64,000 bases of DNA, from assembly GCA_964582965.1 (NCBI GenBank), contig CAZOUN010000001.1, forward strand, positions 4,745 through 68,744, given 5' to 3'. This document shows, one piece after another, positions 13,393 to 35,975 of the stretch. A model generated the notes under the pieces. That model did no database searches. It saw only the letters and a list, made by a program, of their open reading frames with translations, and had not been told where the DNA came from. Origin of the DNA: an uncultured Anaerolineales bacterium (GTDB taxonomy: Bacteria > Chloroflexota > Anaerolineae > Anaerolineales > UBA11858). A program made the position numbers and the translations under genes. How positions within the stretch are numbered: the first letter of the stretch is position 1; each line of letters starts with the position of its first letter.

Positions 13393-13404
13393 GGATAATT
13401 AAAT

Positions 13405-19903: not shown

Positions 19904-19999
19904 AATTTGTCTGGAAGAAATAATAGGAGGTGAAAATTATAATGTATATTTGTTTTGGTGTACTGAAGATTGATTATTAGATTTACAAAGGAGTTCGAA

Positions 20000-21154: not shown

Positions 21155-21180
21155 AAAAGTTTATCAGTAGAAGTAGATCA

Positions 21181-21216
21181 ATGGCAGCCGGCTTTACGGT
21201 TTAGGCCGGCTGCCAT
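21181..21216 (+). promoter_or_regulatory. Intra-operon stem-loop after the substrate-binding-protein gene
   Basis: Perfect 12-bp arms ATGGCAGCCGGC (21181-21192) / GCCGGCTGCCAT (21205-21216) with a 12-nt loop. It is followed by an A-run, not a T-run. Confidence 0.4.
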
Positions 21217-21236
21217 ATCAAAAAATAGGATTTTAG

Positions 21237-22781
21237 ATGACACAGAACCGAGATGATAAGAACCAGTTGCTGATCGATATGCGGGATATTGTCAAGCGTT
21301 TTCCAGGAGTATTGGCAAACGATGGTGCTAATCTTACTCTTCGTCGAGGAGAGGTGCACGCTGTCCTGGGCGAGAACGGAGCAGGCAAGAGCACATTAAT
21401 GAACATCCTTTCCGGTTTATATAGACCAGATAGTGGAGAAATCTATGTTGGCGGCGCACGAAAAGAATTTGGCTCTGCACGTGATGCTCTATTAGCGGGA
21501 ATTGGCATGGTCCATCAGCATTTCTGCCTGGTTGATATTTTTTCTGCCGCAGAGAATATCACTCTCGGAATGAATGAACCTCGAGTTCATTTGAATATGG
21601 CCAATATAGAAGAAGAGATTGGCGAATTAGGACGTAAATACAATCTGGGTATTGATCCCCATGCCAGGATTTGGCAACTTTCTATCGGAGAACAGCAGCG
21701 TGTTGAAATTCTCAAATTACTTTACCGCGATGCACAAGTTCTCATCCTTGATGAACCAACATCGGTTCTCACGCCTCAAGAATCGGACGAGCTCAGTGAT
21801 ACATTACGCCGCCTGGCAGATTCGGGACGCGGGATTATTTATATTAGCCATCGTTTAAGCGAGGTTTGTGCGGTTGCCGATCGAGTGACAATCATTCGTG
21901 GCGGCCGTAATATTGCCACACTTGAGCTTGAAGAAATTGACGAAGCCCGGGTCGCAAATCTTATGCTTGGGGCAGATGTGTCAGATTTTGTGCAAGTAGA
22001 TCACACTAAAAAGCCAGGAAACGTTGTCCTCGAGATCAAGGATTTAGACGTGACCAGCGATCGGGGTTTACCAGCAGTGCGAGCAGCAAATATATCCGTT
22101 CAGGCAGGCCAGATTGTTGGTTTGGCCGGAGTAGCAGGAAATGGCCAAAAAGAACTTGCTGGTGCGATTGCTGGCATGCGCGCTGTTGATTCGGGAATAA
22201 TCAATATTTCAGGCAAGCCCATTGCTGGTAAGGGAACGCGCGAGATTATTAACGAGGGAGTAAGTTTGATCCCGGAAGATCGGACGGGAACAGGATTGGT
22301 AACAAATTTAAGTATTAAAGATAACACCATATTGCGTGGGTATTGGAAGAAACGGTTTTCCCGCGGGATATTGATTAATTGGAAAGAAGTAGAAGAGCAT
22401 ACAGAGAAACTTGTAGAGGATTTTAATGTTGTAACTCCCCATATTAATGAGGAGATTTGGAAACTTTCTGGAGGAAACCAACAACGATTATTGTTGGCCC
22501 GTGAAATGACCTCAGAGCCTAAAGTAATCGTCGCCAGCCACCCTACAAGTGGGCTGGATGTCCAGGCAGCAATGGATGTTCATAATTTATTAATTGAACA
22601 AAGAGATAGGGGAGCAGCTATCCTGGTGATATCTGAAGATTTGGAGGAGCTAATGACGCTTTCTGATCAGATCATTGTGATCTATGACGGGCGCGTAACC
22701 CCTCCGATTCCAGCGACAGAAGCAGATCGATCAGAGTTGGGATTATTGATGATGGGGTCCGGCGTGAAGGAGCAAGTGTAA
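21237..22781 (+). CDS. ABC transporter ATP-binding protein, duplicated-ATPase CUT2/nucleoside type, transporter 1
   Basis: 514 aa with two ABC domains. Walker A GENGAGKST, LSIGEQQRVEI, second-domain GVAGNGQKEL, LSGGNQQR. Confidence 0.9.
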   Translation: MTQNRDDKNQLLIDMRDIVKRFPGVLANDGANLTLRRGEVHAVLGENGAGKSTLMNILSGLYRPDSGEIYVGGARKEFGSARDALLAGIGMVHQHFCLVDIFSAAENITLGMNEPRVHLNMANIEEEIGELGRKYNLGIDPHARIWQLSIGEQQRVEILKLLYRDAQVLILDEPTSVLTPQESDELSDTLRRLADSGRGIIYISHRLSEVCAVADRVTIIRGGRNIATLELEEIDEARVANLMLGADVSDFVQVDHTKKPGNVVLEIKDLDVTSDRGLPAVRAANISVQAGQIVGLAGVAGNGQKELAGAIAGMRAVDSGIINISGKPIAGKGTREIINEGVSLIPEDRTGTGLVTNLSIKDNTILRGYWKKRFSRGILINWKEVEEHTEKLVEDFNVVTPHINEEIWKLSGGNQQRLLLAREMTSEPKVIVASHPTSGLDVQAAMDVHNLLIEQRDRGAAILVISEDLEELMTLSDQIIVIYDGRVTPPIPATEADRSELGLLMMGSGVKEQV

Positions 22782-23869
22782 TGAAGATCAAAATTGAGAA
22801 ACGACTTGACGCGCCCCGCATCCTAGTAATCCTAATGCCTCTGGTTGCGGTAATTATTGCATTTGTTATCAGCGGGATCTTAATTGCCACAACTGGAGCA
22901 AATCCTTTCGCAGCTTTTGATACGATGTGGAAAGGTGCCTTTGGGACAACATATTCTCTATCAGAAACAATTGTTAGTTCTATTCCCCTTATGCTTGCAG
23001 GACTCGGCGTAGGTATTGCTTCACATGCGAAACTTTGGAATATTGGTGGCGATGGCCAGATCATCATGGGTGCTTTTGCCGCTTCTGGTTTGGCCTTGTT
23101 CTATCCTGATCTACCACGGCCGATCTTAATTGGGGGGATGATGATTCTTGGCTTCTTGGCTGGAGGCTTATGGGCAGTTATTGCTGCGCTGCCACGCATC
23201 TACTTGGGTATAAATGAGATCATCACTACAATGATGTTTAATTTCATTGCCGGCTTTTGGGTAAGTTATATCGTTCAAGGTCCATGGCGGGATCCGATTT
23301 TGGTGGGCTTCCCATTTACGGCAAAATTTACAAAAGAAGCTTGGTTGCCAAGATTCTTCGGAACCAGGATACACCTTGGATTAGTGATTGCATTGATCGC
23401 CGCGGTAATTATCGCCATCTTGCTATATCGTTCAAAATGGGGTTATGAATTAAGGGTGATCGGCGGAAGTCTTGATTCTGCAAATTACGCGGGAATTAAT
23501 GTCAAGAGAAGTTTGCTATTGGCGATGTTGCTCAGTGGAGGTTTGGCGGGCTTGGCAGGGATGGCCGAGGTTTCCGGGATTCTTCACAGATTACAAGAAG
23601 GCATTGCTGCCGGGGCGGGTTTCAGCGCTTTTATTCTGGTTGCATTGGCTAATGGAAACCCGTTTGGAATAATAGTATCAGGTTTTTTGCTGGGCGCTTT
23701 ATTAACTGGAGGGACGTCTGCCCAAACGATGGGAGTGCCGCCACAAATAGCAGATATTATGCAAGGTCTTATTCTATTCTTTGTTCTTGCTTCGACTTTC
23801 TTTACACGGTATCGGGTAAAGTTTGATCGGCCTGAACTTAAGAGCGCTAATGTGGAAAGCGGAGATTGA
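22781..23869 (+). CDS. ABC transporter permease, transporter 1
   Basis: 362 aa polytopic membrane protein. Its start overlaps the ATPase stop. Typical CUT2/BMP-system permease layout. Confidence 0.85.
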   Translation: MKIKIEKRLDAPRILVILMPLVAVIIAFVISGILIATTGANPFAAFDTMWKGAFGTTYSLSETIVSSIPLMLAGLGVGIASHAKLWNIGGDGQIIMGAFAASGLALFYPDLPRPILIGGMMILGFLAGGLWAVIAALPRIYLGINEIITTMMFNFIAGFWVSYIVQGPWRDPILVGFPFTAKFTKEAWLPRFFGTRIHLGLVIALIAAVIIAILLYRSKWGYELRVIGGSLDSANYAGINVKRSLLLAMLLSGGLAGLAGMAEVSGILHRLQEGIAAGAGFSAFILVALANGNPFGIIVSGFLLGALLTGGTSAQTMGVPPQIADIMQGLILFFVLASTFFTRYRVKFDRPELKSANVESGD

Positions 23870-23871
23870 TT

Positions 23872-24798
23872 ATGGATGTATATATGTTCAGCGCTTTACT
23901 TCACACAATGATCACCGCTGGAACACCTATCGTTTATGCAGCACTTGGGGAATTGATCACAGAACGAGTCGGTATTCTCAACCTTGGCCTTGAGGGGGTA
24001 ATGTTAATTGGATCCATCGCTGGTTTTGCTACAGCCTCCCATTTTTCAAACCATTGGATAGGCCTGGGAGCTGCGATCATTGCCGGCGCATTGACAGGGT
24101 TATTCTTCGCGTTATTATGTGTGGGATTTAAGGTGGATCAAGTCGTAGCCGGGATCGCATTATCTACTTTTGGAATTGGATTCAGCGCTTTTGTTGGAAA
24201 ACCCTGGCTGGGAAAACCATTTTCTGTGCCGTTTGAGGACATAAGACTGCCGATTTTGGCCGATATTCCCATTATTGGTGAACCGTTTTTTAACCAGGAT
24301 GCCCTTGTATATATCTCCTACTTGCTGGTTCCGATTCTCTGGTATTTTGTTTACAAAACACGCCCTGGACTGCACCTGCGCTCAGTGGGAGAGAATCCAC
24401 GAGCGGCAGACACTTTGGGAATTAATGTTACCCGGATGCGATATGTTTACACGATGATAGGTTGTGCAATTGCTGCTATCGGTGGCGCTTATCTAACAAT
24501 GGCCTTTGTTCCCACCTGGTTTGAAGAAATTACGGTTGGTCGGGGCTGGATTGCTGTCTCACTAGTGATATTCTCGGGATGGAATCCATTAATCGTTATT
24601 TTTGGTGCCTACTTGTTTGGGGGTCTGGACGCTGCCACTCTTTATATCCAGGCAATAGGTACAAATATTCCCTCTCATTTCCTGGGAATGGGCCCATATA
24701 TTCTAACGATCCTTGTATTGGTTCTTGCGGCTCGTAAACGCCAGGGAGGGTTGGGGCCAGCGGCTCTTACGATACCATACGACAGTGAAGGGCAGTAG
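23872..24798 (+). CDS. ABC transporter permease, transporter 1 (second subunit)
   Basis: Polytopic membrane protein. GGAGA (23861-23865) precedes ATG 23872; the ORF-track TTG at 23866 is the alternative start. Confidence 0.85.
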   Translation: MDVYMFSALLHTMITAGTPIVYAALGELITERVGILNLGLEGVMLIGSIAGFATASHFSNHWIGLGAAIIAGALTGLFFALLCVGFKVDQVVAGIALSTFGIGFSAFVGKPWLGKPFSVPFEDIRLPILADIPIIGEPFFNQDALVYISYLLVPILWYFVYKTRPGLHLRSVGENPRAADTLGINVTRMRYVYTMIGCAIAAIGGAYLTMAFVPTWFEEITVGRGWIAVSLVIFSGWNPLIVIFGAYLFGGLDAATLYIQAIGTNIPSHFLGMGPYILTILVLVLAARKRQGGLGPAALTIPYDSEGQ

Positions 24799-24842: not shown

Positions 24843-25319
24843 ATGTCAAAGGTCGAAATAAAATTTCAGGTCAACGGCGAAGAAAAAACTGTAAAGACAG
24901 CCCCTGACCGAACTCTGTTAAAGGTCTTGCGAGAAGACTTGAATCTGACAGGCACCAAAGATGGCTGCAGCCAGGGGGACTGCGGCGCCTGTTTGGTGAT
25001 GATGAATGGCAAGGCAGTAAATTCCTGCCTGGTTCTGGCTCCTCAGGCAGACGGGGCAAAGATAATAACCGTAGAGGGATTGGCCGAAAATGGAGAACTC
25101 AGCAATCTGCAGCAGGCTTTCGCGGAAAGATGGGGATTTCAGTGCGGATTTTGCACACCTGGCATGTTGATCTCCAGTTATGCCCTGTTGCAGAGTAATC
25201 CTGATCCAACCCTGGAGGAGATCAAGCGAGCACTGGCTGGAAATCTCTGCCGTTGTACTGGCTATAAGCCAATATTTGATTCGGTCAAGATGGCTGCTGA
25301 ACTGACAATGGATAAATAA
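24843..25319 (+). CDS. Molybdenum hydroxylase [2Fe-2S] small subunit, set 2
   Basis: 158 aa with CSQGDCGACLV..NSC and CGFCTPGM...CRCTGY. Paralog of 8197-8670. Confidence 0.9.
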   Translation: MSKVEIKFQVNGEEKTVKTAPDRTLLKVLREDLNLTGTKDGCSQGDCGACLVMMNGKAVNSCLVLAPQADGAKIITVEGLAENGELSNLQQAFAERWGFQCGFCTPGMLISSYALLQSNPDPTLEEIKRALAGNLCRCTGYKPIFDSVKMAAELTMDK

Positions 25320-25321
25320 TC

Positions 25322-26731
25322 ATGAATTATCAAAGAATGTTAGAAACTCTTGATAAAGCCGAAACCGGTCCCATTCTCGAGGAAAAGGATTTTGATAAAA
25401 AGCAGATAGGAGCCGCGATCCAGGAAATCGTCAAGAGATTCGATATCTCTTGGCCAAAAGACATTATGGTTCCTTCAGATGACCAACTCGCCGACCGCTT
25501 ATTTGAAGCGGGGTTGACTCTTGCCGAAGAAAGTGGACTGTTCTGCGTGGATACTGGGCGGCATATGACCTGGACACGCAATGAACTGCTGGATAGATTG
25601 GGAAATATTCCATCTCGAATAACGCTTGGTACTGGCGACGATGAAGTGACTATTAAAAGGCGTTTGCCTGATGAAAATTCGCGAATTGTGGTCAGCGGGG
25701 GAGCATATGGTGTCCCCGTGCCCGAAGATCTCTATCTGCCAGTTATGCTAAGTTATGCTCAAGAACCCAGCCTAGATTTCATTGAAGGACCAATGTTAAC
25801 AACAACTCATGGACGGCCGCCTCGTGCTAACTCACCCTGGGAATCCGTTTGGTGCTGGCAGGAGAAGGATCTTGCGCTGGAAGCAGCTCGACGAGCCGGA
25901 AGACCGGGCATTGCTATTGGGACTGCGGTAGGCTCAGCAAGCGAACTCGGTGAATTGTCAACCATGACTTGTGGTGGATTTAGGACAACTGATAAACACC
26001 ATCTGGTATTTACCAGTGAATTGAAAGTTAACTATGCAGAGCTGACCAAGGCTGTTCATTTTATGCACACGGGTGCAAAAGTACTGGGATACTATAATCC
26101 TATCTTTGGTGGATATGGAGGCGGTGTTGAAGGAATGGCTATCCTGATGGTTGCAGGCCAGATTCTGCTTGATGCCTGTTTCTATACATCAATAGTTAAT
26201 GCTGGACCCGGGCATGCTCATCTCAGTTGTAATAGTTATCCAGCAATGTTATCTGGCCAAGCGCTAGCTTTCCAAGCCTTAAGCCGTAATACGAACTTGC
26301 TGTTTTCGTCTTTCCTTAGACCAACTGCTGGCCCTTGTGTGCCCCACATATTTGATGAGATCGCTGCCATTGTCATAGCTTCAGCGCCATCCGGAATCTC
26401 TTTTATCGAAGGTGTGCATACCGCTACTGGACGATTTGAAAGTCATTGTTCTGGACTTGAAGCGCGTTTCATGGCGGATATCACACATGCTGCTGAAAAA
26501 CTAACCCGGCTTGACGCTGATGGTGTGGTTAAGAAAATTGTGGAGAAGTATGAAGATAAGCATAGAACGATCCAAAAGGGGAAGTCATTTTCTCAATGTT
26601 ACGATCTGGAGTCTTTGAAGCCTACGCCAGAATGGCAAGGGATGTATGAGGATGCTTGCATGGAGATGGAAAAAGAATACGGCCTGATTATTTCTAATCC
26701 CCCCCGTGAACATAACGTTGATAACAAATAA
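25322..26731 (+). CDS. MtmB-family methyltransferase, non-pyrrolysine (paralog 7, class A)
   Basis: Starts 2 nt after the 2Fe-2S subunit stop. Motifs VPSDDQLADRLFEAG, GTGDDEV, GRPGIAIG, IFGGYGGGVEG, NAGPGHAHLSC, C-terminal FSQCYDLESLKPTPEWQGMYEDA. Confidence 0.88.
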   Translation: MNYQRMLETLDKAETGPILEEKDFDKKQIGAAIQEIVKRFDISWPKDIMVPSDDQLADRLFEAGLTLAEESGLFCVDTGRHMTWTRNELLDRLGNIPSRITLGTGDDEVTIKRRLPDENSRIVVSGGAYGVPVPEDLYLPVMLSYAQEPSLDFIEGPMLTTTHGRPPRANSPWESVWCWQEKDLALEAARRAGRPGIAIGTAVGSASELGELSTMTCGGFRTTDKHHLVFTSELKVNYAELTKAVHFMHTGAKVLGYYNPIFGGYGGGVEGMAILMVAGQILLDACFYTSIVNAGPGHAHLSCNSYPAMLSGQALAFQALSRNTNLLFSSFLRPTAGPCVPHIFDEIAAIVIASAPSGISFIEGVHTATGRFESHCSGLEARFMADITHAAEKLTRLDADGVVKKIVEKYEDKHRTIQKGKSFSQCYDLESLKPTPEWQGMYEDACMEMEKEYGLIISNPPREHNVDNK

Positions 26732-26907
26732 GTCATACGGCGATCAGCGCTTTTTGGGGATCTTTTTATCAACCGTATTCAAATAAATGAAAATATATTG
26801 TTGGAGAAGAAAATAATGGTCAATAGAAATCGATTGATAAAGAAGCAACCGTTAGCCATTAATAGAATTGGTTCAGATGGATGCAGGACTGGGGAAGGAG
26901 GTAGCAA

Positions 26908-29178
26908 ATGACGCATAATGTGATTGGAAAACCATCCCCCAACCTAATCAATTATCAGATCCTGACCGGGGGTGCTCACTATTTGGACGATCTGAGCCTG
27001 GAAGGCACACTGGTTGGTAAATTACTTTACAGCCAGCATCCTTGTGCATTGATCAAAAAAATTGATATTGCTAAGGCCAAAAACCTGCCCGGTGTTGTCG
27101 CAGTACTTACCCATGAGGACATTCCCGGTGAGAACAGCTTCTTGCTGCAAACACCAGACCAGCCGGTCTTGATGTCGGACCGGGTGAATTACCTGGGAGA
27201 TGCGGTTGCGGCCGTAGCTGCCGAAACAGAAGAAGCTGCCCAGGCAGCCCTTGCTGCCATTGAAGTGATTTATGAACCTCTGCCGGGTACTTACAATATC
27301 GAGGATTCCATGAATACGGATGCTTCCAAGGTATTGCCCGGTTACGAGAATATTATTCCAGCCAGCACGCACGAACAGGGTGATCTGGAGGCTGGTTTCC
27401 AAGAAGCGGATGTGATCATTGAAAACACGTACCAATCTCAGTTGATCGAACAAGCTTTTCTAGAACCTGAAGGAGCTTTGTCCTATATCGACCCGGAAGG
27501 GAATATGGTGGTATATGCATCTAATCAGGCCCCTAATCGGGACAGGATGCAGATTGCCCGCTCTTTGAATATGCCGGAGCATAAAGTCAGGGTAATCACA
27601 CCTTATGTCGGGGGAGCCTTTGGAGGTAAAGACGAAGTCCACGTCCAGATCCATGCCGCCTTGCTGACTCAGGCAACCGGTAGGCCGGTCCAGATTCTCA
27701 GGACTCGAGAGGAATCCATCCTTACCCACGTTAAACGTCACCCGATCACGGTCCATCACAAGCTGGGAGCAACAAAGGACGGTAAGATCACAGCAGTCAG
27801 CCTCAAGGCTATTGCAGATACAGGTCCTTATGTAAATGCAGGAATACATGTGATGTGGTTTGTTGGAACGGTTGCCAGTGGGCCTTATTATTTGCCCAAT
27901 GTGCGAGTTGAAACTCTTGCCGTAAGAACCAATAATCCGATTGGCGGAGCCATGCGCGGTTTTGGCGGACCTCAAGTCTGTCTGGCCCATGAGGGCCAGA
28001 TGGATGAATTGGCCAAGGCTCTGAACATGGATCCGGTTGAAATCCGCCGTATCAATGCCATCCAGAGCGGCCAGGTCACACCAAATGGAGGTATTGTCCG
28101 CAATGCGGATGCGGTCCCTGCCAGTATTGATGAAGCAGCTCGTATGATTGGCTGGGAGAAACGTGATCGAATCGACCGACAACCGGAGCCGCGCTTGAGA
28201 AGAGGCTGGGGAATGGCAGCGAGCTGGTTTGTGATTGGATTGGGAAGGGGACAGGATAACGCAGGCGCGATCGTTGAAATGGCTCCGGATGGCTCGGTTT
28301 TGATTCGGACCGGTGCTGTAGAAATGGGTCAGGGAGTGTTCACGACTCTGGGGGCTATGGTGGCCGAAAACCTGGGTATTGATCTGGGATCGATCAGGGT
28401 CATTGGCCCGGATACCGATATTACGCCGGATGCGATGCAAACCGCAGCCTCTAGGCAGACGTTCATGTCAGGAAATGCTGTCAATAAAGCTTCCCTGGTG
28501 ATCAGGAATAGCCTGCTGGAAACAGCCGCAGAGGAAACTGGCCTGCCGATAGAGATCCTGGATCTCAAGAGTGGACAGCTCCGGGCGGAAGGTGAGGAAT
28601 TATCAATTTCCATTCCGGAACTGGCTGCCAAGGCTACGGTTGCCAATCGCCCCATGTATGCCAATGGGTTTTATGTGATGGATTTCCCTGAAGAAAAAAC
28701 CAATGAAGGCACTTTTTATGCAGTTGGACCCTCAGCATTCGGCACCCAGATTGCGCAGGTCCTGGTGGATATTGAAACCGGGGAAGTGCAAATTGAGAAG
28801 CTAATAGCAGTCCAAAATGTTGGCAAGATTATCAATTACGGGGGCGCCTATGGTCAGATGGAAGGAGGCTGCGTGATGGGCATAGGCTATGCCCTGATGG
28901 AAGACCTGGTAGTTGAACAGGGAAAGACCCTGAATGATTCCCTGGAAAGCTACCTCATTCCAACCGTGATGGATATCCCGGATATTGAGATCAAATTACT
29001 AGAGATCCCCGAGCCCTTTGGTCCATTTGGTGCCGTGGGTATTGGTGAACCATCTATGATGGGAACTGCTCCAGCGATTGCCAATGCAGTGTCAGATGCA
29101 ATAGGAAAAAGGATGACCCAAATACCATTGACCCCGGAACGAGTCCTGGCGGCCATTGAAGGAGAAGACAATGAATAA
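26908..29178 (+). CDS. Molybdenum hydroxylase large (molybdopterin) subunit, xanthine dehydrogenase family, set 2
   Basis: 756 aa with GGAFGGKDE, GGAMRGFGGPQ, GIGEPSM. Clear paralog of 9878-12145. RBS GGAAGGAGG. Confidence 0.88.
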   Translation: MTHNVIGKPSPNLINYQILTGGAHYLDDLSLEGTLVGKLLYSQHPCALIKKIDIAKAKNLPGVVAVLTHEDIPGENSFLLQTPDQPVLMSDRVNYLGDAVAAVAAETEEAAQAALAAIEVIYEPLPGTYNIEDSMNTDASKVLPGYENIIPASTHEQGDLEAGFQEADVIIENTYQSQLIEQAFLEPEGALSYIDPEGNMVVYASNQAPNRDRMQIARSLNMPEHKVRVITPYVGGAFGGKDEVHVQIHAALLTQATGRPVQILRTREESILTHVKRHPITVHHKLGATKDGKITAVSLKAIADTGPYVNAGIHVMWFVGTVASGPYYLPNVRVETLAVRTNNPIGGAMRGFGGPQVCLAHEGQMDELAKALNMDPVEIRRINAIQSGQVTPNGGIVRNADAVPASIDEAARMIGWEKRDRIDRQPEPRLRRGWGMAASWFVIGLGRGQDNAGAIVEMAPDGSVLIRTGAVEMGQGVFTTLGAMVAENLGIDLGSIRVIGPDTDITPDAMQTAASRQTFMSGNAVNKASLVIRNSLLETAAEETGLPIEILDLKSGQLRAEGEELSISIPELAAKATVANRPMYANGFYVMDFPEEKTNEGTFYAVGPSAFGTQIAQVLVDIETGEVQIEKLIAVQNVGKIINYGGAYGQMEGGCVMGIGYALMEDLVVEQGKTLNDSLESYLIPTVMDIPDIEIKLLEIPEPFGPFGAVGIGEPSMMGTAPAIANAVSDAIGKRMTQIPLTPERVLAAIEGEDNE

Positions 29179-30544
29179 TCGTGGAAGGCTGCTGGAAGTA
29201 CTGAACAAGGCTGAAACTGGTCCTATTATTGACGAAAAGGAATTCGAAGCCAAACTTATCACACAGACAATTCGCAAACTTATTAAAAAGTATGATCTAA
29301 AGTTTGACAAATCCGTCTTGGTGCCAGCCAAAGACGAGTTGGCAGACCGTATCTTTCAGGCAGGTTTGGAATTTGCGGTTGAAGTGGGTATGTTCTGTCA
29401 GGACACCAGCCGCAGGATACTATGGACTGAAGGTGAATATCTCCGCGGTCTGGAAAGCTGTAGTGGGAAGGCTGTGATGGGTACAGGTAATGATACGGTT
29501 GAAATTATTGCCCGGACACCTGAATCGAATATAATTCCAACTTTTGTGGGCGGCCCCTTTGGTGTACCGGTTCCCGAGGATATGTTTGTTCCTATTATGC
29601 TGAGTTATGCCCAGGAACCACTGATCGATGTGATAGAAAATCCAACCATCGAAAAAGTATATGGTTATCCTGTTAAGGCCGATTCGCCCTGGGAAGTGTT
29701 GGGTGGCTGGCGAGAAGCTGAGCTTGCTTTTGAAACAATCAATCGAGCCGGACGGCCCGGTATGCCGATTGGCTGTATTGAAATTTCACCTACTGCCCTG
29801 GCCCAGATTTCTGCCGCCTCCTGGGGAGGTGTCCGTCCCAGCGACTGGCACCATGTCTCAGCGCCAAGTGAATTTAAAACAAATTACGACCTGCTTTCAA
29901 AGACAGCCCATATCACTCGAATCGGCGCTAACATGGAAGGCTACCTGAATATTATCTATGGCGGATTCCTGGGCGGTGCGGAAGGAGTGGCAATAGGTTT
30001 GGCCGCCGGCATGATCGTTGTCAACCAAAACTACATGGGCACGACCATCAGCGCCAGTTCGGCCCATCCCTTCCTGCACAGCGATGCGACCCCGGAATCT
30101 ATCTGGGCCCAGAGCCTGGCATTCCAGGCTATCTCACGCAATAGCAAAATGTTGACCGCTTCCCTCTGCAAACCAGCAGCAGGGCCAGGAACAAAGACGC
30201 TTCTCTATGAATGTGCGGCTTTTGTTTTGTCCGGCGTGGCTTCTGGTCTGGCCGTACCCCAAGCTGCTATGACAGCTACTGGAACAAACCGCTGCCATTG
30301 CAGTGGGTTGGAATCCCGTTTCAGTGCTGAGGTGTCCCGGGCGGCGGCAGGAATGAGCAGGGAACAGGTCGATGAGATTACCAAAAAACTAATGGCGATC
30401 TATGAAGACGATTTACCCAACAAGCCTGTGGGTAAACCATTCCAGGAAGTATATGATATGAAATCTCTCCAGCCAACAGCGGAGTGGAACGGTTTATACG
30501 AAGAAGTAAAAGAGGAATTAATGGGTATGGGAGTGCCCCTCTAA
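29171..30544 (+). CDS. MtmB-family methyltransferase, non-pyrrolysine (paralog 8, class B)
   Basis: GGAGAAG (29161) precedes ATG 29171. The start overlaps the large-subunit stop by 8 nt (ATGAATAA, 29171-29178). The N-terminus MNNRGRLLEVLNKAETGP aligns with paralog 6. Also GRPGMPIG, IYGGFLGGAEG, SSAHPFLHS. Confidence 0.88.
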   Translation: MNNRGRLLEVLNKAETGPIIDEKEFEAKLITQTIRKLIKKYDLKFDKSVLVPAKDELADRIFQAGLEFAVEVGMFCQDTSRRILWTEGEYLRGLESCSGKAVMGTGNDTVEIIARTPESNIIPTFVGGPFGVPVPEDMFVPIMLSYAQEPLIDVIENPTIEKVYGYPVKADSPWEVLGGWREAELAFETINRAGRPGMPIGCIEISPTALAQISAASWGGVRPSDWHHVSAPSEFKTNYDLLSKTAHITRIGANMEGYLNIIYGGFLGGAEGVAIGLAAGMIVVNQNYMGTTISASSAHPFLHSDATPESIWAQSLAFQAISRNSKMLTASLCKPAAGPGTKTLLYECAAFVLSGVASGLAVPQAAMTATGTNRCHCSGLESRFSAEVSRAAAGMSREQVDEITKKLMAIYEDDLPNKPVGKPFQEVYDMKSLQPTAEWNGLYEEVKEELMGMGVPL

Positions 30545-30637
30545 GCCAGGAAAAGTAAAAAATAAGCTTGTCAATGGGCCAAAAACACCCCCTTATATAA
30601 TAATTCTGGAATTTCAGGTGTTGTGAACGAAGCTTCG

Positions 30638-30666
30638 TTGACAGGAAACCGGGTTCGGGTTAAACT
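30638..30666 (+). promoter_or_regulatory. Candidate sigma70-type promoter in the 263-bp gap
   Basis: TTGACA (30638-30643), 17-nt spacer, TAAACT (30661-30666). A 14-bp palindrome, AACGAAGCTTCGTT (30626-30639), abuts the -35 element. Confidence 0.4.
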
Positions 30667-30807
30667 ATTAATGTCAGATGGCTGCCAAGTAAAGCATCAA
30701 AGATATTGATTTCGCCCAGCCCCGAGAAGAAACGAAAAATCTGACCTCAAGCTAAGAAGACCCCGGAAATTTCCGGGATAAAAAATTGCCCAGTCAGGAG
30801 AAATTTA

Positions 30808-32157
30808 ATGTCATCAATTCTTATCAAGAATGGCTATCTCGTTACCATGGACGCCTCGGATCGCAGGGGATATTTTGATATATATATCGAAGATAAATCC
30901 ATTAAGGAAATCGCCCCTGAAATCAACAAAAAGGCCGATAAAGTGATTGATGCCAAGGACCAGTTGATTCTGCCAGGATTTGTGCAGTCCCATACCCACC
31001 TCTGCCAGAGTCTTTTAAGAGGCCAGGCGGATGACCAGCCCCTGCTGGAATGGCTTGATACCATTACTGGTTTGGAGTTTCGGCATTCCCCGGAGACGTT
31101 GTATGCCTCGGCGCGGATTGGATTAGCAGAAATGATCAAATCGGGGACAACCTCGATCATTGACATGGGCACACTGCATCATCAGGACAGTGTCTTTGAA
31201 GCGATCCTTGAATCTGGGATGCGAGCCCAGGCGGGAAAGGCAATGATGGATCTAACCGAAAACCTGCCGCCGCTTTTACAGGAGACCACAGAAGATTCCA
31301 TAAATGAAAGTGTGGATTTGATGCATCGCTGGCATGGCAAAGCCGATGGCAGGATCCGCTATGGATTTGCTCCCCGCTGGCAGTTATGGAATACTACTGA
31401 GCTGCTGCAGGAGATCAAACAGGAAGCCGATAATCATCCCGGGGTGGGAATTCATGGCCATGCAGGCGAGATAGAGTTTGAGATCAAAGCCATGATCGAA
31501 CAGACCGGGTACAGGAACTTCGTTTATCTTGAGAAGATCGGTGTGGTTGGTCCCAATGTCCAAATGGCTCACTGCATTTGGCTGGATGAAGATGAATATC
31601 GGGTTATGGCTGAAACAGGATCCAACGCCCTGCATTGCCCCTGCTGCAACGCCAAACTTGGCTCCGGGATCGCCAAGGTGCCGGAAATGCTAGAGAAGGG
31701 TATCAATGTTTCCCTAGGTTCTGATGGAGCCCCCAGCAACAATAATATGGATATGTTCATTGAAATGCGCCTGGCATCGCTAGTTCATAAATACAGGCTG
31801 GGTGCTGAAAAATTACCCGCGGAAGATGTGCTGCGAATGGCTACTATGGGCGGCGCAAAATCACTTGGCATGCAAGATCAAATAGGCTCACTGGAAGAAG
31901 GTAAAATAGCTGATATCATCATTCTGGATGATGGCGGCTTGTATGCGGCGCCAATCCGAGATTTTGAGGAAGACAATATTGTCAAGCGTTTGGTATCTTC
32001 CTACCAATCGGCCAGCGTGCAGACCAGTATAATTGATGGCCAATTAGTGATGGAAGATCGCCAACTGCTTACTATGAAAGAAAATGAGATTCTCAGCGAT
32101 GGGAAAATTGCTCTTGCTGCTCTGTGGGCCAGGAAACGGGCGGCTGAAGTAAACTAA
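30808..32157 (+). CDS. Amidohydrolase, MtaD/AtzA/guanine-deaminase-like subfamily (copy 3)
   Basis: 449 aa with PGFVQSHTH, GIHGHAGEIE, MAHCIWLD, LGSDGAPSNNN. RBS CAGGAGA. Confidence 0.82.
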   Translation: MSSILIKNGYLVTMDASDRRGYFDIYIEDKSIKEIAPEINKKADKVIDAKDQLILPGFVQSHTHLCQSLLRGQADDQPLLEWLDTITGLEFRHSPETLYASARIGLAEMIKSGTTSIIDMGTLHHQDSVFEAILESGMRAQAGKAMMDLTENLPPLLQETTEDSINESVDLMHRWHGKADGRIRYGFAPRWQLWNTTELLQEIKQEADNHPGVGIHGHAGEIEFEIKAMIEQTGYRNFVYLEKIGVVGPNVQMAHCIWLDEDEYRVMAETGSNALHCPCCNAKLGSGIAKVPEMLEKGINVSLGSDGAPSNNNMDMFIEMRLASLVHKYRLGAEKLPAEDVLRMATMGGAKSLGMQDQIGSLEEGKIADIIILDDGGLYAAPIRDFEEDNIVKRLVSSYQSASVQTSIIDGQLVMEDRQLLTMKENEILSDGKIALAALWARKRAAEVN

Positions 32158-32194: not shown

Positions 32195-33049
32195 ATGGAA
32201 ACAATTGTCAAAAGTGAAACAAAAGAAGTTGTTATCAGTATTGATCGGCCGTTTGTGATCATCGGTGAAAAAATCAACCCGACTGGCCGGAAGAAATTGG
32301 CCGCGGCTCTGAAGGGTGGTGATTTTGAGTATGTAAAACAAATTGCTCTTCGGCAGGTTGCAGCGGGTGCAGATATCCTGGATGTGAATGTCGGTGTTCC
32401 CGGGGTGGATGAAGTTGACCTTCTGCCTAAAGTAGCAAAAATTGTTTCTGAAACAGTAGATGTCCCCCTTTGTCTTGATTCTGCCAACCGGGATGCACTG
32501 GCTGCTGCGCTGGCTGTGCTGCCTGGCCGACCCCTGGTAAATTCAGTGAATGGAGAAGAAGATTCAATGGAAGCAGTCCTTCCTGTGATCAAGGAATTTG
32601 GTGTGCCGGTCATCGCTTTGGTAATGCATGATGATGGCATTCCCAATGATGCAGATACCCGGGTTGCTGTGGCAGGAAAGATTATTGAACGAGCTGCCAA
32701 ACTGGGCATTCCTGCAGAAGATATTGTGGTTGATCCCCTGGTCCTCACAGTCGGTGCAGATAGCAGTTCCGGTGCAGTTACCCTGGAAACCGTCAGGCGT
32801 ATAAAAGAAGAATTTGCCGTGAATATGAACCTTGGTGCCAGCAACGTTTCCTTTGGCCTGCCGGATCGACACACCCTTAACCAGGCATTTTTAGCATTGG
32901 CGATTGGTGCTGGAGCGACCTGCGCCATTACAGATCCAATGAAATTGACCCCGATTATCCATGCCTCTGATTTGTTGATAGGCCGGGACAAATTTGGATC
33001 TCGATATATTGGGTACTGGCGAGATCACAAACCCGAAGAAGCAAAATAA
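32195..33049 (+). CDS. Pterin-binding methyltransferase (methyl-corrinoid:tetrahydrofolate type; MtrH/AcsE/MtgA-like)
   Basis: 284 aa with IGEKINPTG, ILDVNVG, LVNSVNGEE, VDPLVL, GASNVSFGLP. This is the motif series of the pterin-binding TIM-barrel fold. Confidence 0.85.
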   Translation: METIVKSETKEVVISIDRPFVIIGEKINPTGRKKLAAALKGGDFEYVKQIALRQVAAGADILDVNVGVPGVDEVDLLPKVAKIVSETVDVPLCLDSANRDALAAALAVLPGRPLVNSVNGEEDSMEAVLPVIKEFGVPVIALVMHDDGIPNDADTRVAVAGKIIERAAKLGIPAEDIVVDPLVLTVGADSSSGAVTLETVRRIKEEFAVNMNLGASNVSFGLPDRHTLNQAFLALAIGAGATCAITDPMKLTPIIHASDLLIGRDKFGSRYIGYWRDHKPEEAK

Positions 33050-33052
33050 TCT

Positions 33053-33739
33053 ATGAAGATATGGCGGGTTGAAGATTTAAACATAACTGTGGATGGCGTT
33101 CTGCGGGGGCAGGGCGCCGATCCTGATATCATCCGTTCCCGAAGTCCGCGGTTGGTTGCTGTTGCAGAAAAAGCCCTGGCCTCTGTGATCGATTTACTTG
33201 AACCAGAGGTCTTGGTTAAGGAATTCAAGGTTACTGGTTTCAAACATGACAGCCTAGAACTTGAGGGAGGAAAGAAAATATCTGGCCCGCTGGTCACTGG
33301 GCACCTGGTTGGCGCAAGTTATATCACAGTAGCTGTTTGTACTGTTGGCTCCAAGATCGATGGTTACGCTTCAGACGTCATGGATGATGATATTGTGTTG
33401 GGGTTAGCGGTGGATGGTGTTGGATCTGCCGCGGTGGAGTCACTGGCCAATGCGGTCTGTAGGCAGATCGAAATGAAGGCAGCGGCAGATGGATTTCAAA
33501 CAACCATTCCACTGAGCCCAGGTATGATAGGCTGGGGTGTTCAGGAAGGACAACCGCTGATTTTTGACCTGGTTGATCCGAATCAAATTGGAATGTCCCT
33601 GACCCCTTATCATCTGATGGTTCCCCGTAAATCTCTATCAATGATTATAGGTATTGGTGCAGGAATAAATTCAGGCGAGTGCATTTGTGATTATTGCGCC
33701 ATGCGTGAGACCTGCCGATACCAGGAGCATAACAAGTAA
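33053..33739 (+). CDS. MetH activation-domain-like protein (vitamin B12-dependent methionine synthase activation region family)
   Basis: 228 aa. LSPGMIGWGVQEGQPLIFDLV...IGMSLTPYHLMVPRKSLSMIIGIG matches the SPGYGDW...LMxPxKS pattern. C-terminal Cys cluster CICDYCAMRETC. Confidence 0.6.
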   Translation: MKIWRVEDLNITVDGVLRGQGADPDIIRSRSPRLVAVAEKALASVIDLLEPEVLVKEFKVTGFKHDSLELEGGKKISGPLVTGHLVGASYITVAVCTVGSKIDGYASDVMDDDIVLGLAVDGVGSAAVESLANAVCRQIEMKAAADGFQTTIPLSPGMIGWGVQEGQPLIFDLVDPNQIGMSLTPYHLMVPRKSLSMIIGIGAGINSGECICDYCAMRETCRYQEHNK

Positions 33740-33743: not shown

Positions 33744-35564
33744 ATGAATAAAAAACACACTTTAGTAGTTGATATGCAGCCGGTGGGACGTCGGATAGAA
33801 ATTGAAAAGGGAAAGACCCTGCTGGACGCATCCCGTGAAGCTGGCGTAGGTATTGTATCCCTTTGTGGAGGAGAAGGCTGGTGTAATAGCTGTTTGGTGA
33901 GAATTGCCAGTGGTGAGGTTAATCCACCCACTCAATCAGAAATCGATTCATTAGGTCCGGATAAAATTGATGAAGGATACCGATTAGCATGTCAGGCAAT
34001 ACCGCTCTCAGATGTACGGATCGATATACCGCCGGATTCTCTCTCAACCCCGCAGCGGTTACAGGTCGAAGGCAAGGATTTTGATATTGATATTGCTCCA
34101 ATAGTTAAAGTGGTTGATCTGGAACTGGCACCCCCGGAGATTAAGGATTTACGGGCAGATGCAGGCAGGGTCATAGAAGCTTTGGCTGCTGCGGGACATC
34201 CTGATGTTCACATTGATTTACCCATCCTGGAAATTTTATCCGATCTGATCAGAAAATATAAATGGTCTGCCCGTTTTGTCTTGCGGGAAAACGAAATCAT
34301 TGCAGTTCTTCCTCGGGAAGCGGAGATTTTTGGAATTTCTGTTGATATTGGGACCACGAAGGTAGCTGTGTACCTGGTTAATCTGTCCACCGGACAGATC
34401 GTGGAAAAAGTCGGTGAAATGAACCCCCAGATCGCTTATGGAGAGGACATTATCAGCCGTATATCCTATACTCGGGATAATGAGGACGGCAGGGAAAAAC
34501 TTCAAAAAGCAGTCGCGAATACATTAAACGATAAGATCCACGAGCTGTGCAAGCTGGCTGATATTCAGCAAGACCAGGTTGTGGATTCGGTCATCGTTGG
34601 CAATACAGCCATGCACCATTTATTCGCTGGAATGCCGGTCGGACAGCTGGTATTTGCCCCCTATGTTCCTGCTTTGAATCAATCGATCGATCTGCGCGCT
34701 AGAGAGCTGGGGGTCAATATGGCCCCGGGAGCATACATCCATTTACTGCCCAACATTGCTGGTTATGTTGGCGCCGATCATGCTGCAGTGATCCTGTCCA
34801 CAGAATTGTGGAAGACAAAAGAAACTATACTGGCTATCGATATTGGTACAAATACAGAGATCTCCCTGGTTTCAAAAGGGAAAATATCCAGTTGTTCCTG
34901 TGCCTCTGGCCCCGCTTTTGAAGGTGCTCACATCACTCATGGTATGCGGGCAGCACCAGGAGCTATTGAACGTGTTCAGATCAAGGACGGGGAAATTAAA
35001 TTATTTACCATAGACAATCAGCCGCCAGTGGGGATCTGTGGTTCCGGTATTTTGGATGTTGTGGCGGAAATGAAAACAGCAAACTTGATGGATGAAAAAG
35101 GAGCAATTAAGGCTGACAGCCACTTTACTCGTCCAGACGTAAAAAATTTGAATGAACTGTTGTTGGTGCCGGAGAAAGAATCTGGCAATCAGAAGGACAT
35201 CACGATTTCCCGGAAGGATGTGAATGAGATCCAATTGGCAAAAGCCGCTATCCGGGCTGGCCTGGATATTTTACTAGCCGAAGCCGGGATTGGGGCAGAA
35301 GATGTGGACAAGGTTCTGGTAGCTGGCGCTTTTGGGACATATATCAGCGTCCCCAATGCCATTGAAATTGGCATGTTCCCCAAAATCCCACTGGGCTATT
35401 TCCAACAGGTAGGCAATGCGGCTGGTATGGGTGCTGTACAGGCTTTGATCTCGATGAAACACAGGCATTTGATCTCTGAAGTATGTAAAGATGTGGACTA
35501 TATCGAGTTAACCACCTATGGTGATTTTCAGAAACTGTATATGAATGCTATGTATTTGCGTTAG
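33744..35564 (+). CDS. RACo-type reductive activase of corrinoid proteins (2Fe-2S ferredoxin domain + ASKHA/DUF4445 ATPase)
   Basis: ATG 33744 lies 4 nt after the upstream stop; the ORF-track start at 33687 overlaps the upstream gene. N-terminal LCGGEGWCNSCLV...ACQ ferredoxin motif, then VDIGTTKV, GNTAMHHLF, AIDIGTNTE. Confidence 0.85.
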   Translation: MNKKHTLVVDMQPVGRRIEIEKGKTLLDASREAGVGIVSLCGGEGWCNSCLVRIASGEVNPPTQSEIDSLGPDKIDEGYRLACQAIPLSDVRIDIPPDSLSTPQRLQVEGKDFDIDIAPIVKVVDLELAPPEIKDLRADAGRVIEALAAAGHPDVHIDLPILEILSDLIRKYKWSARFVLRENEIIAVLPREAEIFGISVDIGTTKVAVYLVNLSTGQIVEKVGEMNPQIAYGEDIISRISYTRDNEDGREKLQKAVANTLNDKIHELCKLADIQQDQVVDSVIVGNTAMHHLFAGMPVGQLVFAPYVPALNQSIDLRARELGVNMAPGAYIHLLPNIAGYVGADHAAVILSTELWKTKETILAIDIGTNTEISLVSKGKISSCSCASGPAFEGAHITHGMRAAPGAIERVQIKDGEIKLFTIDNQPPVGICGSGILDVVAEMKTANLMDEKGAIKADSHFTRPDVKNLNELLLVPEKESGNQKDITISRKDVNEIQLAKAAIRAGLDILLAEAGIGAEDVDKVLVAGAFGTYISVPNAIEIGMFPKIPLGYFQQVGNAAGMGAVQALISMKHRHLISEVCKDVDYIELTTYGDFQKLYMNAMYLR

Positions 35565-35591: not shown

Positions 35592-35975
35592 ATGATGGAA
35601 AAAAATTTCTTGGCTGTAAATGGCTCATTGATGCGCGGTTTGGCTCTAAACCAAAATCTGGTGGACGCCCGGGCTCAATTTGTGCAGGAGTCTAAAACAA
35701 GCGCGAATTACCGTCTGTGGTCTATCGATGACTCTTACCCAGCAATGCTGCGAGATGAAGGCGAAGGAACCGAAATCGACCTCGAGATCTGGGAAATACC
35801 CCTTGAAGGGCTTCTTGATGTGCTTAAAAAGGAACCTCCCGGATTATGCATGGGTAAGATTGAAATCCAGGATGGTGAATGGGTTTTTGGGATTCTTGGA
35901 GAATCCTATCTGTGTCATGGCAATAAAGAGATTTCCTCGTGGGGTGGTTGGAAGAAGTATCTGAACAAAAAATAG
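35592..35975 (+). CDS. GGCT-fold protein resembling the stand-alone C-terminal domain of allophanate hydrolase
   Basis: 127 aa. LAVNGSLMRGLALNQNL...YRLWSI..YPAML....IDLEIWEIP...PPGLCMGKIEIQDGEWVFGILGE follows the pattern I recall for the allophanate-hydrolase C-terminal / gamma-glutamylcyclotransferase-like fold. Confidence 0.5.
   Translation: MMEKNFLAVNGSLMRGLALNQNLVDARAQFVQESKTSANYRLWSIDDSYPAMLRDEGEGTEIDLEIWEIPLEGLLDVLKKEPPGLCMGKIEIQDGEWVFGILGESYLCHGNKEISSWGGWKKYLNKK

Follow-up and report, generated by a model that had tools for sequence, protein, structure and literature searches.

Among the described counterparts of the methyltransferase genes considered here is MtmB of Methanosarcina barkeri (1l2q/1nth), an archaeal enzyme of family PF05369 that carries pyrrolysine (Pyl) at position 202 and belongs to a system in which coenzyme M (CoM) is the acceptor. 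A single MtmB without pyrrolysine has been characterised, the MtqB of a methanogen, which was reported in 2026 to act on tetramethylammonium and choline, and the remaining homologues of this kind were termed 'of unknown function' (PMC13044021). Here we analyse a 64,000-nucleotide (nt) stretch of DNA from an uncultured Anaerolineales bacterium (contig CAZOUN010000001.1), referred to throughout as the window, and within it a locus in which two MtmB homologues, p7 and p8, are interleaved with the genes for the small and large subunits of a molybdenum hydroxylase, small2 and large2. Small2, large2 and p8 form a conserved, tightly packed operon module, and the interest of this arrangement lies in the conserved integration of a methyltransferase family, largely uncharacterised, with genes for heterocycle catabolism.

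The product of p8 matches M. barkeri MtmB1 from end to end (457 versus 458 amino acids (aa); residues 12-455 with residues 14-456 of 1l2q, 7e-64). It differs from the M. barkeri enzyme in being bacterial, in having no in-frame UAG codon, and in carrying an ordinary residue in place of pyrrolysine. The surrounding system differs as well, in that the predicted methyltransferase of the island uses tetrahydrofolate instead of coenzyme M and the genes lie amid others for heterocycle catabolism.

A conserved module and its junctions

The genes of the locus, together with one non-coding feature, are as follows.

24843-25319, + strand: small2, 2Fe-2S subunit of the hydroxylase (158 aa), with TAA at 25317-25319 in both the list of open reading frames (ORFs) and the raw sequence
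25322-26731, + strand: p7, MtmB homologue (469 aa), with its ATG at 25322 after a 2-nt gap
26853-26907, + strand: probable relic of a small2 3' tail, carrying the large2 ribosome-binding site GGAAGGAGG
26908-29178, + strand: large2, molybdenum-binding large subunit (756 aa), with stop codon TAA at 29176-29178
29171-30544, + strand: p8, MtmB homologue (457 aa)

A first-pass annotation of the window had given this gene order and these coordinates, and had pointed to an 8-nt overlap of p8 with large2 preceded by GGAGAAG. The raw sequence agrees to the base: the overlap reads ATGAATAA at 29171-29178, with the large2 TAA within codons 2-3 of p8, and GGAGAAG is read at 29161-29167, 6 nt ahead of the ATG. 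The gene identities that it proposed are also supported by Pfam. Small2 contains Fer2_2 (2e-31) and Fer2 (5e-10), large2 contains Ald_Xan_dh_C, MoCoBD_1 and MoCoBD_2, and p7 and p8 match MtmB (PF05369) over profile positions 4-449 at 6e-95 and 7e-94, respectively (319 and 316 bits versus a 25-bit cutoff).

For comparison, related contigs (L-numbered loci) were fetched with about 10 kb on each side, and one further contig is referred to as P0129. An exact look-up of the window's p8 returned nothing, and orthologues served in its place. All four genes are under strong purifying selection, with ratios of nonsynonymous to synonymous substitution relative to orthologues of 0.04 for p8, 0.07-0.11 for p7, 0.06-0.07 for large2 and 0.08-0.10 for small2. 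Orthologues of p7 are 80-96% identical to it, and those of p8 are 81-95% identical and each exactly 457 aa long. Since the p8 orthologues uniformly have this length and begin MN/KNRGRL, ATG 29171 is taken as the start codon, as it had been in the first-pass annotation. An earlier start at TTG 29156, offered by a mechanical ORF list, was rejected, as the five lineages with an ATGA junction have this codon out of frame and only the window and L021, which share a 1-nt deletion, have it in frame.

In every orthologous locus with a visible junction (seven lineages including the window), p8 overlaps the large2 stop codon, and it does so in one of two forms.

ATGA junction, five lineages: L001-4 (large subunit 67% identical to large2), L005 (84%), L013 (74%), L022/L041 (87%)
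ATGAATAA junction, two lineages: the window and L021 (large subunit 88% identical to large2)

A Shine-Dalgarno-like motif lies within the last codons of large2 in all lineages, 6-7 nt upstream of the p8 ATG. It is kept as GAAGGAG in five orthologous junctions and reads GAAGGTG in L021. In the ATGA lineages GAAGGAG is followed by 7 nt and then ATGA, and in the window and L021 a single nucleotide has been lost between GGAG and ATG, with the large2 stop moved from TGA to a TAA four bases later. Because this deletion shifts the large2 frame, the 8-nt overlap is a derived form of an ancestral ATGA, and in itself it is best regarded as an ordinary, minor variant of a common junction. Other short overlaps in the window measure -1, -4 and -4, and 4-nt overlaps are ordinary in compact operons. 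Synonymous divergence is at or near saturation in the pairs of loci measured (dS of about 1.9 for both L022 and L013; for L005 no value could be calculated).

From the overlap, the first-pass annotation had concluded that p8 is translationally coupled to the hydroxylase subunit, and this claim stands in part. Co-transcription and close co-translation of large2 and p8 are well supported, the overlap and the motif being conserved in seven lineages. A conserved motif inside the large2 coding sequence, 6-7 nt before the p8 ATG, fits coupled or re-initiating translation, so that coupling of p8 to large2, possibly partial, is plausible. An overlap alone is insufficient to establish coupling, however, and no conserved RNA structure was found at the large2-p8 junction (alignment consensus of -1.16 kcal/mol; z = 0.36 for the window sequence). 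Since no structure occludes the junction and the conserved Shine-Dalgarno-like motif is exposed, p8 can probably also initiate independently.

No terminator-like site was found in the gaps at 26732-26907 and 30545-30807. A promoter-like site (TTGACA, 17 nt, TAAACT) lies at 30638-30666, between p8 and the downstream amidohydrolase gene amido_d, and is the only good promoter-like match in the intergenic gaps of the region. Amido_d is not at this position in L005 and L001, where a methyltetrahydrofolate methyltransferase gene lies directly 3' of p8.

The position of p7 has a different history. It lies between small2 and large2 only in the window, in L030 (p7 95% identical) and in L029 (86%). L001-4, L005, L013 and L021 have no p7, and in these loci small2 and large2 overlap by 11 nt. 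In L029 and L030, p7 overlaps the small2 stop codon as ATGA, and in the window an earlier small2 TAA has arisen by a C-to-T change, which accounts for the 2-nt gap before p7. The 176-nt spacer between p7 and large2 (26732-26907) also appears to record the event, as its last ~50 nt align with nt 424-477 of L021 small2, a score reached by none of 300 shuffles. The best matches in the L029 and L030 spacers likewise fall at or near the spacer 3' end and the 3' tail of small2, with scores that are individually not significant. It is probable, then, that the insertion duplicated ~50 nt of the small2 tail and so preserved in the spacer the signal GGAAGGAGG that large2 needs. A reading of the entire spacer as a collapsed small-subunit pseudogene was rejected, since only the 3' ~50 nt are supported and the similarity of the 5' part is not significant.

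Copies of p7 are also found in other settings. In locus L045 (2637-6822) a 96%-identical p7 (P0244) follows genes for a cupin, MtnA (methylthioribose-1-phosphate isomerase; 445 bits, above the NCBIfam cutoff of 271) and a RuBisCO-like protein, and in L015-17 an 80%-identical orthologue comes after a fused FAD/FeS subunit gene. The nucleotide similarity between the L045 and window copies (93.7%) extends from precisely the ATG to a point 46 nt short of the stop codon (window 25322-26685), and these limits suggest either the movement of an ORF-precise cassette or gene conversion. By this evidence p7 appears to behave as an ORF-precise movable cassette, and its presence here is a recent, lineage-restricted insertion into a former 11-nt overlap of small2 and large2. 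Since p7 is absent from four lineages and has a 96% copy elsewhere, its interleaved position is not a conserved design feature. Where p7 is concerned, the first-pass annotation had overstated the interleaving. The annotation had also asked whether p7 and p8 co-occur with this hydroxylase clade; among the loci compared, p8 follows large2 in all seven orthologous lineages, and p7 is missing from four lineages and is found in an unrelated locus.

Methyltransferases without pyrrolysine and a hydroxylase with a probable non-xanthine pocket

Together with the other MtmB paralogues of the window, p7 and p8 are intact non-pyrrolysine MtmB homologues. The residue aligned with Pyl202 of 1l2q is Gly in p8, and in 11/11 window paralogues this column is occupied by an ordinary residue, mostly Gly, with no internal stop codon. 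Pyrrolysine-dependent MtmB sensu stricto was rejected as an identity, as there is no in-frame amber codon at Pyl202 and the ORFs are uninterrupted. The 11 paralogues are 29-61% identical in pairwise comparison, most of them below 50%. An exhaustive HMMER search of 1.84 billion cluster representatives gave 1073 related clusters at E<=1e-3 and 210, counted as clusters at 50% identity, at E<=1e-30. The non-pyrrolysine MtmB-related family is small, and the window holds an unusual share of its diversity. It was also considered whether the amidohydrolases of the island might release methylamine for the MtmB homologues. This was judged unlikely because pyrrolysine is absent and 11 divergent paralogues would be excessive for one small substrate.

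Large2 and small2 have the domains of the molybdenum hydroxylase family, namely the hammerhead, two molybdenum cofactor-binding domains and two [2Fe-2S] domains. The nearest solved structures to large2 are 4-hydroxybenzoyl-CoA reductase (1rm6, 4e-111), nicotinate dehydrogenase (3hrd; 5e-97 for the N-terminal half and 8e-54 for the C-terminal half) and xanthine dehydrogenase (XDH) of R. capsulatus (1jro). The catalytic Glu is kept, in that GIGEPS of large2 aligns with the GEP motif of XdhB (Glu730; Glu1261 of the bovine enzyme), and this residue is shared by large1, large2 and every other related large subunit examined. Large2 therefore looks catalytically competent, with what appears from the alignments to be a non-xanthine pocket. 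Small2 matches glyceraldDH_gamma, pucE and XdhC-like models of NCBIfam, all below their cutoffs.

Three specific identities were rejected for large2. Canonical xanthine dehydrogenase fails on scores below the cutoffs and on replacement of the xanthine-binding Glu and Arg, 4-hydroxybenzoyl-CoA reductase on a score of 545 against the TIGR03194 cutoff of 995, and nicotinate dehydrogenase on a Phe in place of the substrate-position Arg and on missed NCBIfam cutoffs. The FAD subunit of the first hydroxylase set similarly scores 134 bits against the cutoff of 405 for TIGR03195.

That first set has the following genes.

7312-12145, + strand: first hydroxylase set (FAD subunit, small1, corrinoid protein, YdcZ/DMT permease and large1, by Pfam)

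Immediately before the FAD subunit gene come p2-p4, so that MtmB genes are interleaved here too. From the FAD subunit to large1 the order is kept in L005. The only FAD_binding_5 gene found in the window, at 7312-8193, belongs to this set. The first-pass annotation had counted the locus of p7 and p8 as the second independent case of interleaved hydroxylase and methyltransferase genes. The first set is indeed interleaved as stated, but the sets are paralogous to each other (52% and 58% identity, the latter for small2 and small1) and so are not strictly independent instances.

A 50-aa ORF that overlaps the large1 stop codon in L001 (1333-1485) corresponds to the C-terminal end of a p1-type MtmB. 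A decayed start of a large1-coupled MtmB was considered for it and rejected; the ORF is 92% identical to residues 237-286 of p1 and is thus a scar of rearrangement or deletion, not another coupled junction.

The island and explanations for its linkage

The module is embedded in a larger island, whose features beyond those listed above are as follows.

17-49570, ~49 kb: whole island, with 11 MtmB paralogues, 5 corrinoid proteins, 2 hydroxylase sets, 4 amidohydrolases, 2 Bmp ATP-binding cassette (ABC) importers, 3 GntR/UTRA regulators, a URO-D-family methyltransferase, MT2 and RACo
19970-24798, + strand: Bmp/PnrA-family ABC importer (binding protein, ATPase and two permeases; Pfam Bmp and BPD_transp_2), directly 5' of small2
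30808-32157, + strand: Amido_d, cog0402-type aminohydrolase of the adenosine-analogue/guanine deaminase class (Pfam Amidohydro_1, 3e-74)
32195-33049, + strand: MT2, methyltetrahydrofolate:corrinoid methyltransferase (Pterin_bind, 7e-31; NF005719, 310 bits versus a cutoff of 259)
33053-33739, + strand: MetH activation-domain-like protein of 228 aa (PDB 1j6r, 2.5e-9), between MT2 and the activase
33744-35564, + strand: RACo-type reductive activase (Fer2, RACo_linker, Raco_middle and RACo_C_ter; AcsV-like, 473 bits)

The five corrinoid proteins carry B12-binding and B12-binding_2 domains, and a four-component bacterial corrinoid methyltransferase system is encoded together in the island. The product of 33053-33739 is probably MetH activation-domain-like; its PDB match, 1j6r, is a 'methionine synthase' of T. 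maritima, the gene is kept in L001, L005 and L022, and no Pfam or NCBIfam model matches it. For the activase, the mechanical ORF from GTG 33687 overlaps the upstream gene by 53 nt, and the start is most likely ATG 33744, which lies 4 nt past the upstream stop codon. Three of the amidohydrolases are of the adenosine-analogue/guanine deaminase class and one is of the cytosine deaminase class. Intergenic gaps on the + strand are mostly below 100 nt, and many are below 30 nt. Across the whole window no match to an Rfam family attains the gathering score, which means that no cobalamin riboswitch was found despite the five corrinoid-protein genes.

Several further genes accompany these. A URO-D-family protein of 409 aa (12163-13392) is encoded 3' of large1, as it is in L001 and L005. 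Its similarity to MtaA/MtbA-type methyltransferases is weak (1e-14), and it could act as a further substrate methyltransferase instead of a methyl-corrinoid:acceptor enzyme. The + strand cluster ends with a stand-alone allophanate-hydrolase C-terminal/GGACT-like protein of 127 aa at 35592-35975, which has no amidase domain. At 48320-48760 (+ strand) a hydrophobic ORF of 146 aa, YdcZ/DMT-like in looks and similar in kind to 9404-9862, fills an apparent 701-nt gap between a corrinoid gene (47445-48104) and a GntR gene (48806-49570).

The sole close relative of the window genome among GTDB species representatives is an uncultured Anaerolineales metagenome-assembled genome, and one p8 orthologue is labelled Tara mesopelagic. 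Recent horizontal transfer of the island was considered and rejected, as its G+C content (0.45-0.49) matches that of the housekeeping flank (0.47) and gives no foreign signal. Close relatives differ in whether they have the ABC importer, p7 and amido_d, which makes the island a mosaic.

The association of these genes extends well beyond the orthologous loci. Diverged loci, located through MtmB homologues at 55-73% identity, once more unite MtmB genes with corrinoid, GntR/UTRA and Bmp-ABC genes, and most add a large subunit, an amidohydrolase or both.

L014: MtmB, Bmp ABC, large subunit, corrinoid protein, MtmB
L019: amidohydrolase, large subunit, then five MtmB genes with one corrinoid-protein gene among them
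L044: corrinoid protein, MtmB, large subunit, MtmB, ABC, Bmp, amidohydrolase
P0129 contig: MtmB and corrinoid genes, Bmp ABC, fused FeS/FAD subunit, large subunit
L042: no hydroxylase within 10 kb
L043: no hydroxylase within 10 kb; two Rieske oxygenase genes

Co-location of MtmB, large-subunit, Bmp ABC and amidohydrolase genes thus recurs at 33-43% large-subunit identity, and the linkage of MtmB, hydroxylase and importer at the level of the island is old. The first-pass annotation had considered chance juxtaposition unlikely, and it was right to do so, given the conserved large2-p8 junction and the recurrence of the linkage between MtmB and the XDH family in divergent loci. In L006 and L010, which belong to other phyla and have no MtmB, Bmp-type ABC genes adjoin the hydroxylase genes, and L006 has amidohydrolases as well. 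These contexts suggest that the hydroxylase clade is tied to imported N-heterocycles generally, and that MtmB was added in particular lineages.

The diverged loci have other features of their own. The large-subunit genes that lie among MtmB and corrinoid genes in L014 (16235-18583), L019 (1089-3362) and L044 (10958-13135) keep the catalytic Glu and the cofactor motifs, and no FeS or FAD subunit gene was found within ~10 kb on either side of them. In L043 an MtmB-corrinoid pair is separated from a Bmp ABC importer by the two Rieske/VanA_C oxygenase genes (12122-14184), which encode an oxygen-dependent demethylase-like fold adjoining the corrinoid system. The Bmp binding proteins of L001 (19079-21190), L042 (13635-15512) and L043 (14392-16407) are long, at 625-703 aa, and that of L001 has an NMT1/OpuAC-type domain fused to the Bmp domain.

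Clues to the substrate come from the importers and the amidohydrolases. The closest solved relatives of Bmp1, the binding protein of the importer at 19970-24798, are AtzT (6pi5, 2e-77) and 3s99, with the nucleoside binder TmpC at just 3e-6. The ligands of AtzT are guanine, bound at 110 nM, and hydroxyatrazine, bound at 2 uM, and adenine was modelled in the binding site of 3s99 (PMC6834077). Measured against the contact residues of AtzT (PMC6834077), Bmp1 and its orthologues keep the aromatic sandwich, formed by Trp194 and a Trp aligned to Tyr45, as well as Glu165, Ser97 and Phe98, and have Leu for Asn218, Ser for Asn220 and Phe for Thr139. Bmp2 is more hydrophobic still, with Phe and Pro at the Asn218 and Asn220 positions. 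In AtzT these two residues contact guanine nitrogens and adjoin the N-alkyl arms of hydroxyatrazine (PMC6834077), and their replacement in both Bmp1 and Bmp2 indicates that the ligand is probably not plain guanine. A planar, purine-like ligand with small hydrophobic substituents fits the predicted Bmp1 site. Amido_d scores 518 bits against the cutoff of 522 for the NCBIfam model of 5'-deoxyadenosine deaminase (429 bits for Amido_c), and its neighbours in the PDB are methylthioadenosine/S-adenosylhomocysteine (MTA/SAH) deaminase, guanine deaminase and 8-oxoguanine deaminase/AtzB.

An intriguing question is what joins a molybdenum hydroxylase to a corrinoid methyltransferase in this way. We think it reasonably likely, with appreciable doubt, that the island carries out corrinoid-dependent demethylation coupled to the breakdown of methylated purine-like heterocycles, and that the overlap secures co-expression of the hydroxylase and the methyltransferase. 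On the best reading, two kits have been fused into one catabolic island of a marine Anaerolineales genome. The first, for corrinoid demethylation, would comprise the 11 MtmB methyltransferases, the five corrinoid proteins, the methyl-corrinoid:tetrahydrofolate methyltransferase, RACo and the MetH-activation-like protein. The second, for uptake and degradation of purine-like N-heterocycles, would comprise the two purine-base-type Bmp importers, the four deaminase-type amidohydrolases, the two XDH-family molybdenum hydroxylases and the GntR/UTRA regulators. Each MtmB paralogue may strip a methyl group from a different methylated heterocycle (N-methyl most likely, S-methyl possibly for some), with methylated purines, aminopurines and related bases as candidate substrates. 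The methyl group would move to Co(I)-corrinoid and then, by way of the pterin-binding enzyme, to tetrahydrofolate, while RACo and the MetH-activation-like protein would repair oxidised corrinoid. The amidohydrolases would deaminate the ring, and the neighbouring hydroxylases would hydroxylate it.

The absence of pyrrolysine may be understood in the same terms. Pyrrolysine activates the poor leaving group in methylamine, and it could be dispensable for a ring nitrogen of the amide, imide or cation type. MtqB offers a precedent, since the quaternary amines that it demethylates likewise present a good leaving group (PMC13044021). Hydroxylation adjacent to the methylated nitrogen would make the leaving group better, which would give a chemical reason for expressing hydroxylase and methyltransferase jointly, and the large2/p8 overlap would secure their co-expression, probably with partial translational coupling.

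Several observations weigh against this explanation. The p7 copy in L045 points to an S-methyl substrate and shows that p7 does not depend on the hydroxylase, and no RNA structure at the large2-p8 junction enforces coupling. Large2 misses every NCBIfam equivalog cutoff (best pucD, 578 bits versus 784, and XdhA, 556 versus 780), and the residues that bind xanthine in XdhB, Glu232 and Arg310 (bovine Glu802 and Arg880), are Asp (GGKDE) and Phe in large2; in large1 these positions hold Asp and Val. No FAD subunit gene was found for the second set in the window or in L001, L005, L013 and L021. Large-subunit relatives at 36-52% identity that were found independently of MtmB lie in FAD-small-large operons without MtmB nearby, the sole exception being L034, with a 35% MtmB homologue ~3.8 kb upstream, so that the linkage is restricted to certain lineages. 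Finally, every step towards a methylated purine-like substrate is read from gene content, and demethylation rather than methylation is the presumed direction of transfer.

A bolder version of the same proposal holds that the molybdenum hydroxylases and non-pyrrolysine MtmB proteins constitute a new anaerobic pathway for methylated purines (methylxanthines or the methylated nucleobases of RNA and DNA), in which hydroxylation beside a methylated nitrogen would make it a good leaving group, so that Co(I)-corrinoid could abstract the methyl group and hand it to tetrahydrofolate. In this specific form we regard the proposal as doubtful. Anaerobic N-demethylation of caffeine has been described in marine sediment in a study that assigned no enzyme to it and saw Anaerolineae become enriched along with other taxa (bioRxiv 10.64898/2026.01.06.697959), and a literature search on corrinoid demethylation of methylated nucleosides returned nothing relevant.

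An alternative explanation is that an island for methyl compounds grew by accretion and was compacted into operons, in which case the hydroxylases and MtmB proteins would act on unrelated substrates, with nothing in common but their regulation or genomic surroundings, and the overlap would signify co-transcription only. Short overlaps and gaps are the rule in the window (-1, -4 and -4, with many gaps below 30 nt), the importer, p7 and amido_d vary in their presence among close relatives of this mosaic island, p7 seems to move as an ORF-precise cassette, and a C-terminal relic of a p1 orthologue lies behind large1 in L001. Simple compaction is nevertheless an unlikely explanation, as the large2-p8 junction and its Shine-Dalgarno-like motif have survived in seven lineages, with synonymous sites near or at saturation in those pairs that were measured, and MtmB, large-subunit, Bmp ABC and amidohydrolase genes are found together again where large subunits are only 33-43% identical.

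The substrates might instead carry S-methyl groups. Nucleosides of the MTA/5'-deoxyadenosine type would then be deaminated to inosine analogues, the hydroxylases would oxidise the hypoxanthine set free, and p7-like MtmB proteins would demethylate methanethiol or methylthio-sugars. The genes that precede the 96%-identical p7 of L045 (cupin, MtnA and RuBisCO-like protein) resemble the MTA-isoprenoid shunt, which releases methanethiol, and the scores of the amidohydrolases for 5'-deoxyadenosine deaminase (518 for Amido_d and 429 for Amido_c, with a cutoff of 522), with MTA/SAH deaminase among the nearest structures, point the same way. This idea rests on a single context of a single paralogue, however, and the window contains no gene for MTA phosphorylase/nucleosidase, MtnA or a RuBisCO-like protein. 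Moreover, Bmp1 is far nearer to base binders (2e-77) than to the nucleoside binder TmpC (3e-6), and eleven divergent paralogues exceed the need for one or two thiols. As an account of the island as a whole, S-methyl catabolism therefore seems rather improbable.

We consider it very unlikely that the island serves the breakdown of N-methylpyridinium osmolytes such as trigonelline and homarine, with MtmB removing the quaternary N-methyl group and a nicotinate-dehydrogenase-like molybdenum enzyme hydroxylating the pyridine. In favour of this, both compounds abound in marine biomass, 3hrd (nicotinate dehydrogenase) ranks second among the solved relatives of large2, and MtqB, the sole characterised non-pyrrolysine MtmB, acts on quaternary amines (PMC13044021). 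Against this, the Arg at the substrate position of nicotinate dehydrogenase is Phe in large2, and neither the purine-base-type binding proteins nor the four deaminase-type amidohydrolases would have a role in the breakdown of a pyridine carboxylate.

Least credible of all is a complex of molybdoprotein and methyltransferase, or a flow of electrons from the hydroxylase 2Fe-2S centres to RACo or the corrinoid proteins for reactivation of Co(II). In its favour, the stop/start overlap is conserved, the second set is without an FAD subunit, L014, L019 and L044 each have a large-subunit gene on its own amid MtmB and corrinoid genes, and RACo carries a 2Fe-2S ferredoxin domain. Many non-interacting proteins have overlapping genes, however, the subunits not found may lie beyond the ~10 kb seen per side, p7 occurs in loci without any hydroxylase, and nothing observed points directly to such an arrangement.

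Comparison with described systems

If corrinoid-dependent demethylation of methylated heterocycles is indeed what the island performs, it would constitute a new anaerobic sink for methylated nucleobases or alkaloids in mesopelagic and sediment Chloroflexota and an added source of methyl groups for C1 metabolism, and the scaffold of a pyrrolysine enzyme would have been repurposed. The narrower methylpurine pathway, if true, would give a substrate class to a large uncharacterised branch of MtmB and an enzymology to anaerobic purine N-demethylation. The conserved neighbours narrow the substrate search for non-pyrrolysine MtmB proteins from any methylated compound to a short, purchasable panel of methylated purines, pyrimidines and related heterocycles. 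In the searchable literature, no paper was found that mentions both MtmB and xanthine dehydrogenase.

By description, MtqB and MtqC of Methanococcoides methylutens Q3c likewise pair a non-pyrrolysine MtmB with a dedicated corrinoid protein and act on a substrate with a good leaving group (PMC13044021). They differ in that they belong to an archaeal methanogen and pass the methyl group to CoM, and they have no reported link to molybdenum hydroxylases, amidohydrolases or Bmp importers (PMC13044021). The MttB-type systems of Desulfitobacterium hafniense and Eubacterium limosum (MtgB, MtcB and MtyB) share the four-component logic and the expanded, clustered families, but their methyltransferases belong to the MttB superfamily (COG5598), their substrates are aliphatic quaternary amines, and no molybdenum hydroxylase is interleaved with their genes.

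On the hydroxylase side, PucCDE, XdhABC, nicotinate dehydrogenase, 4-hydroxybenzoyl-CoA reductase and caffeine dehydrogenase have the same subunit domains and catalytic Glu as the second set. Unlike these XDH-family enzymes, the second set has no adjacent FAD gene, and methyltransferase genes lie between and after its subunit genes.

The atrazine system of Pseudomonas sp. ADP (AtzT, AtzB and AtzC) resembles the uptake and deamination genes at the level of families only: the binding protein is nearest to AtzT, and the amidohydrolases are of the AtzB/TrzN and AtzC/cytosine-deaminase classes. The stand-alone allophanate-hydrolase C-terminal domain of the island adds to the likeness, and the atrazine pathway also handles N-alkylated amino-heterocycles. 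The two differ in how the alkyl group is dealt with, as the atrazine pathway has no corrinoid methyltransferases and removes alkylamino groups hydrolytically, whereas the island described here encodes corrinoid methyltransferases alongside its deaminase-type amidohydrolases.

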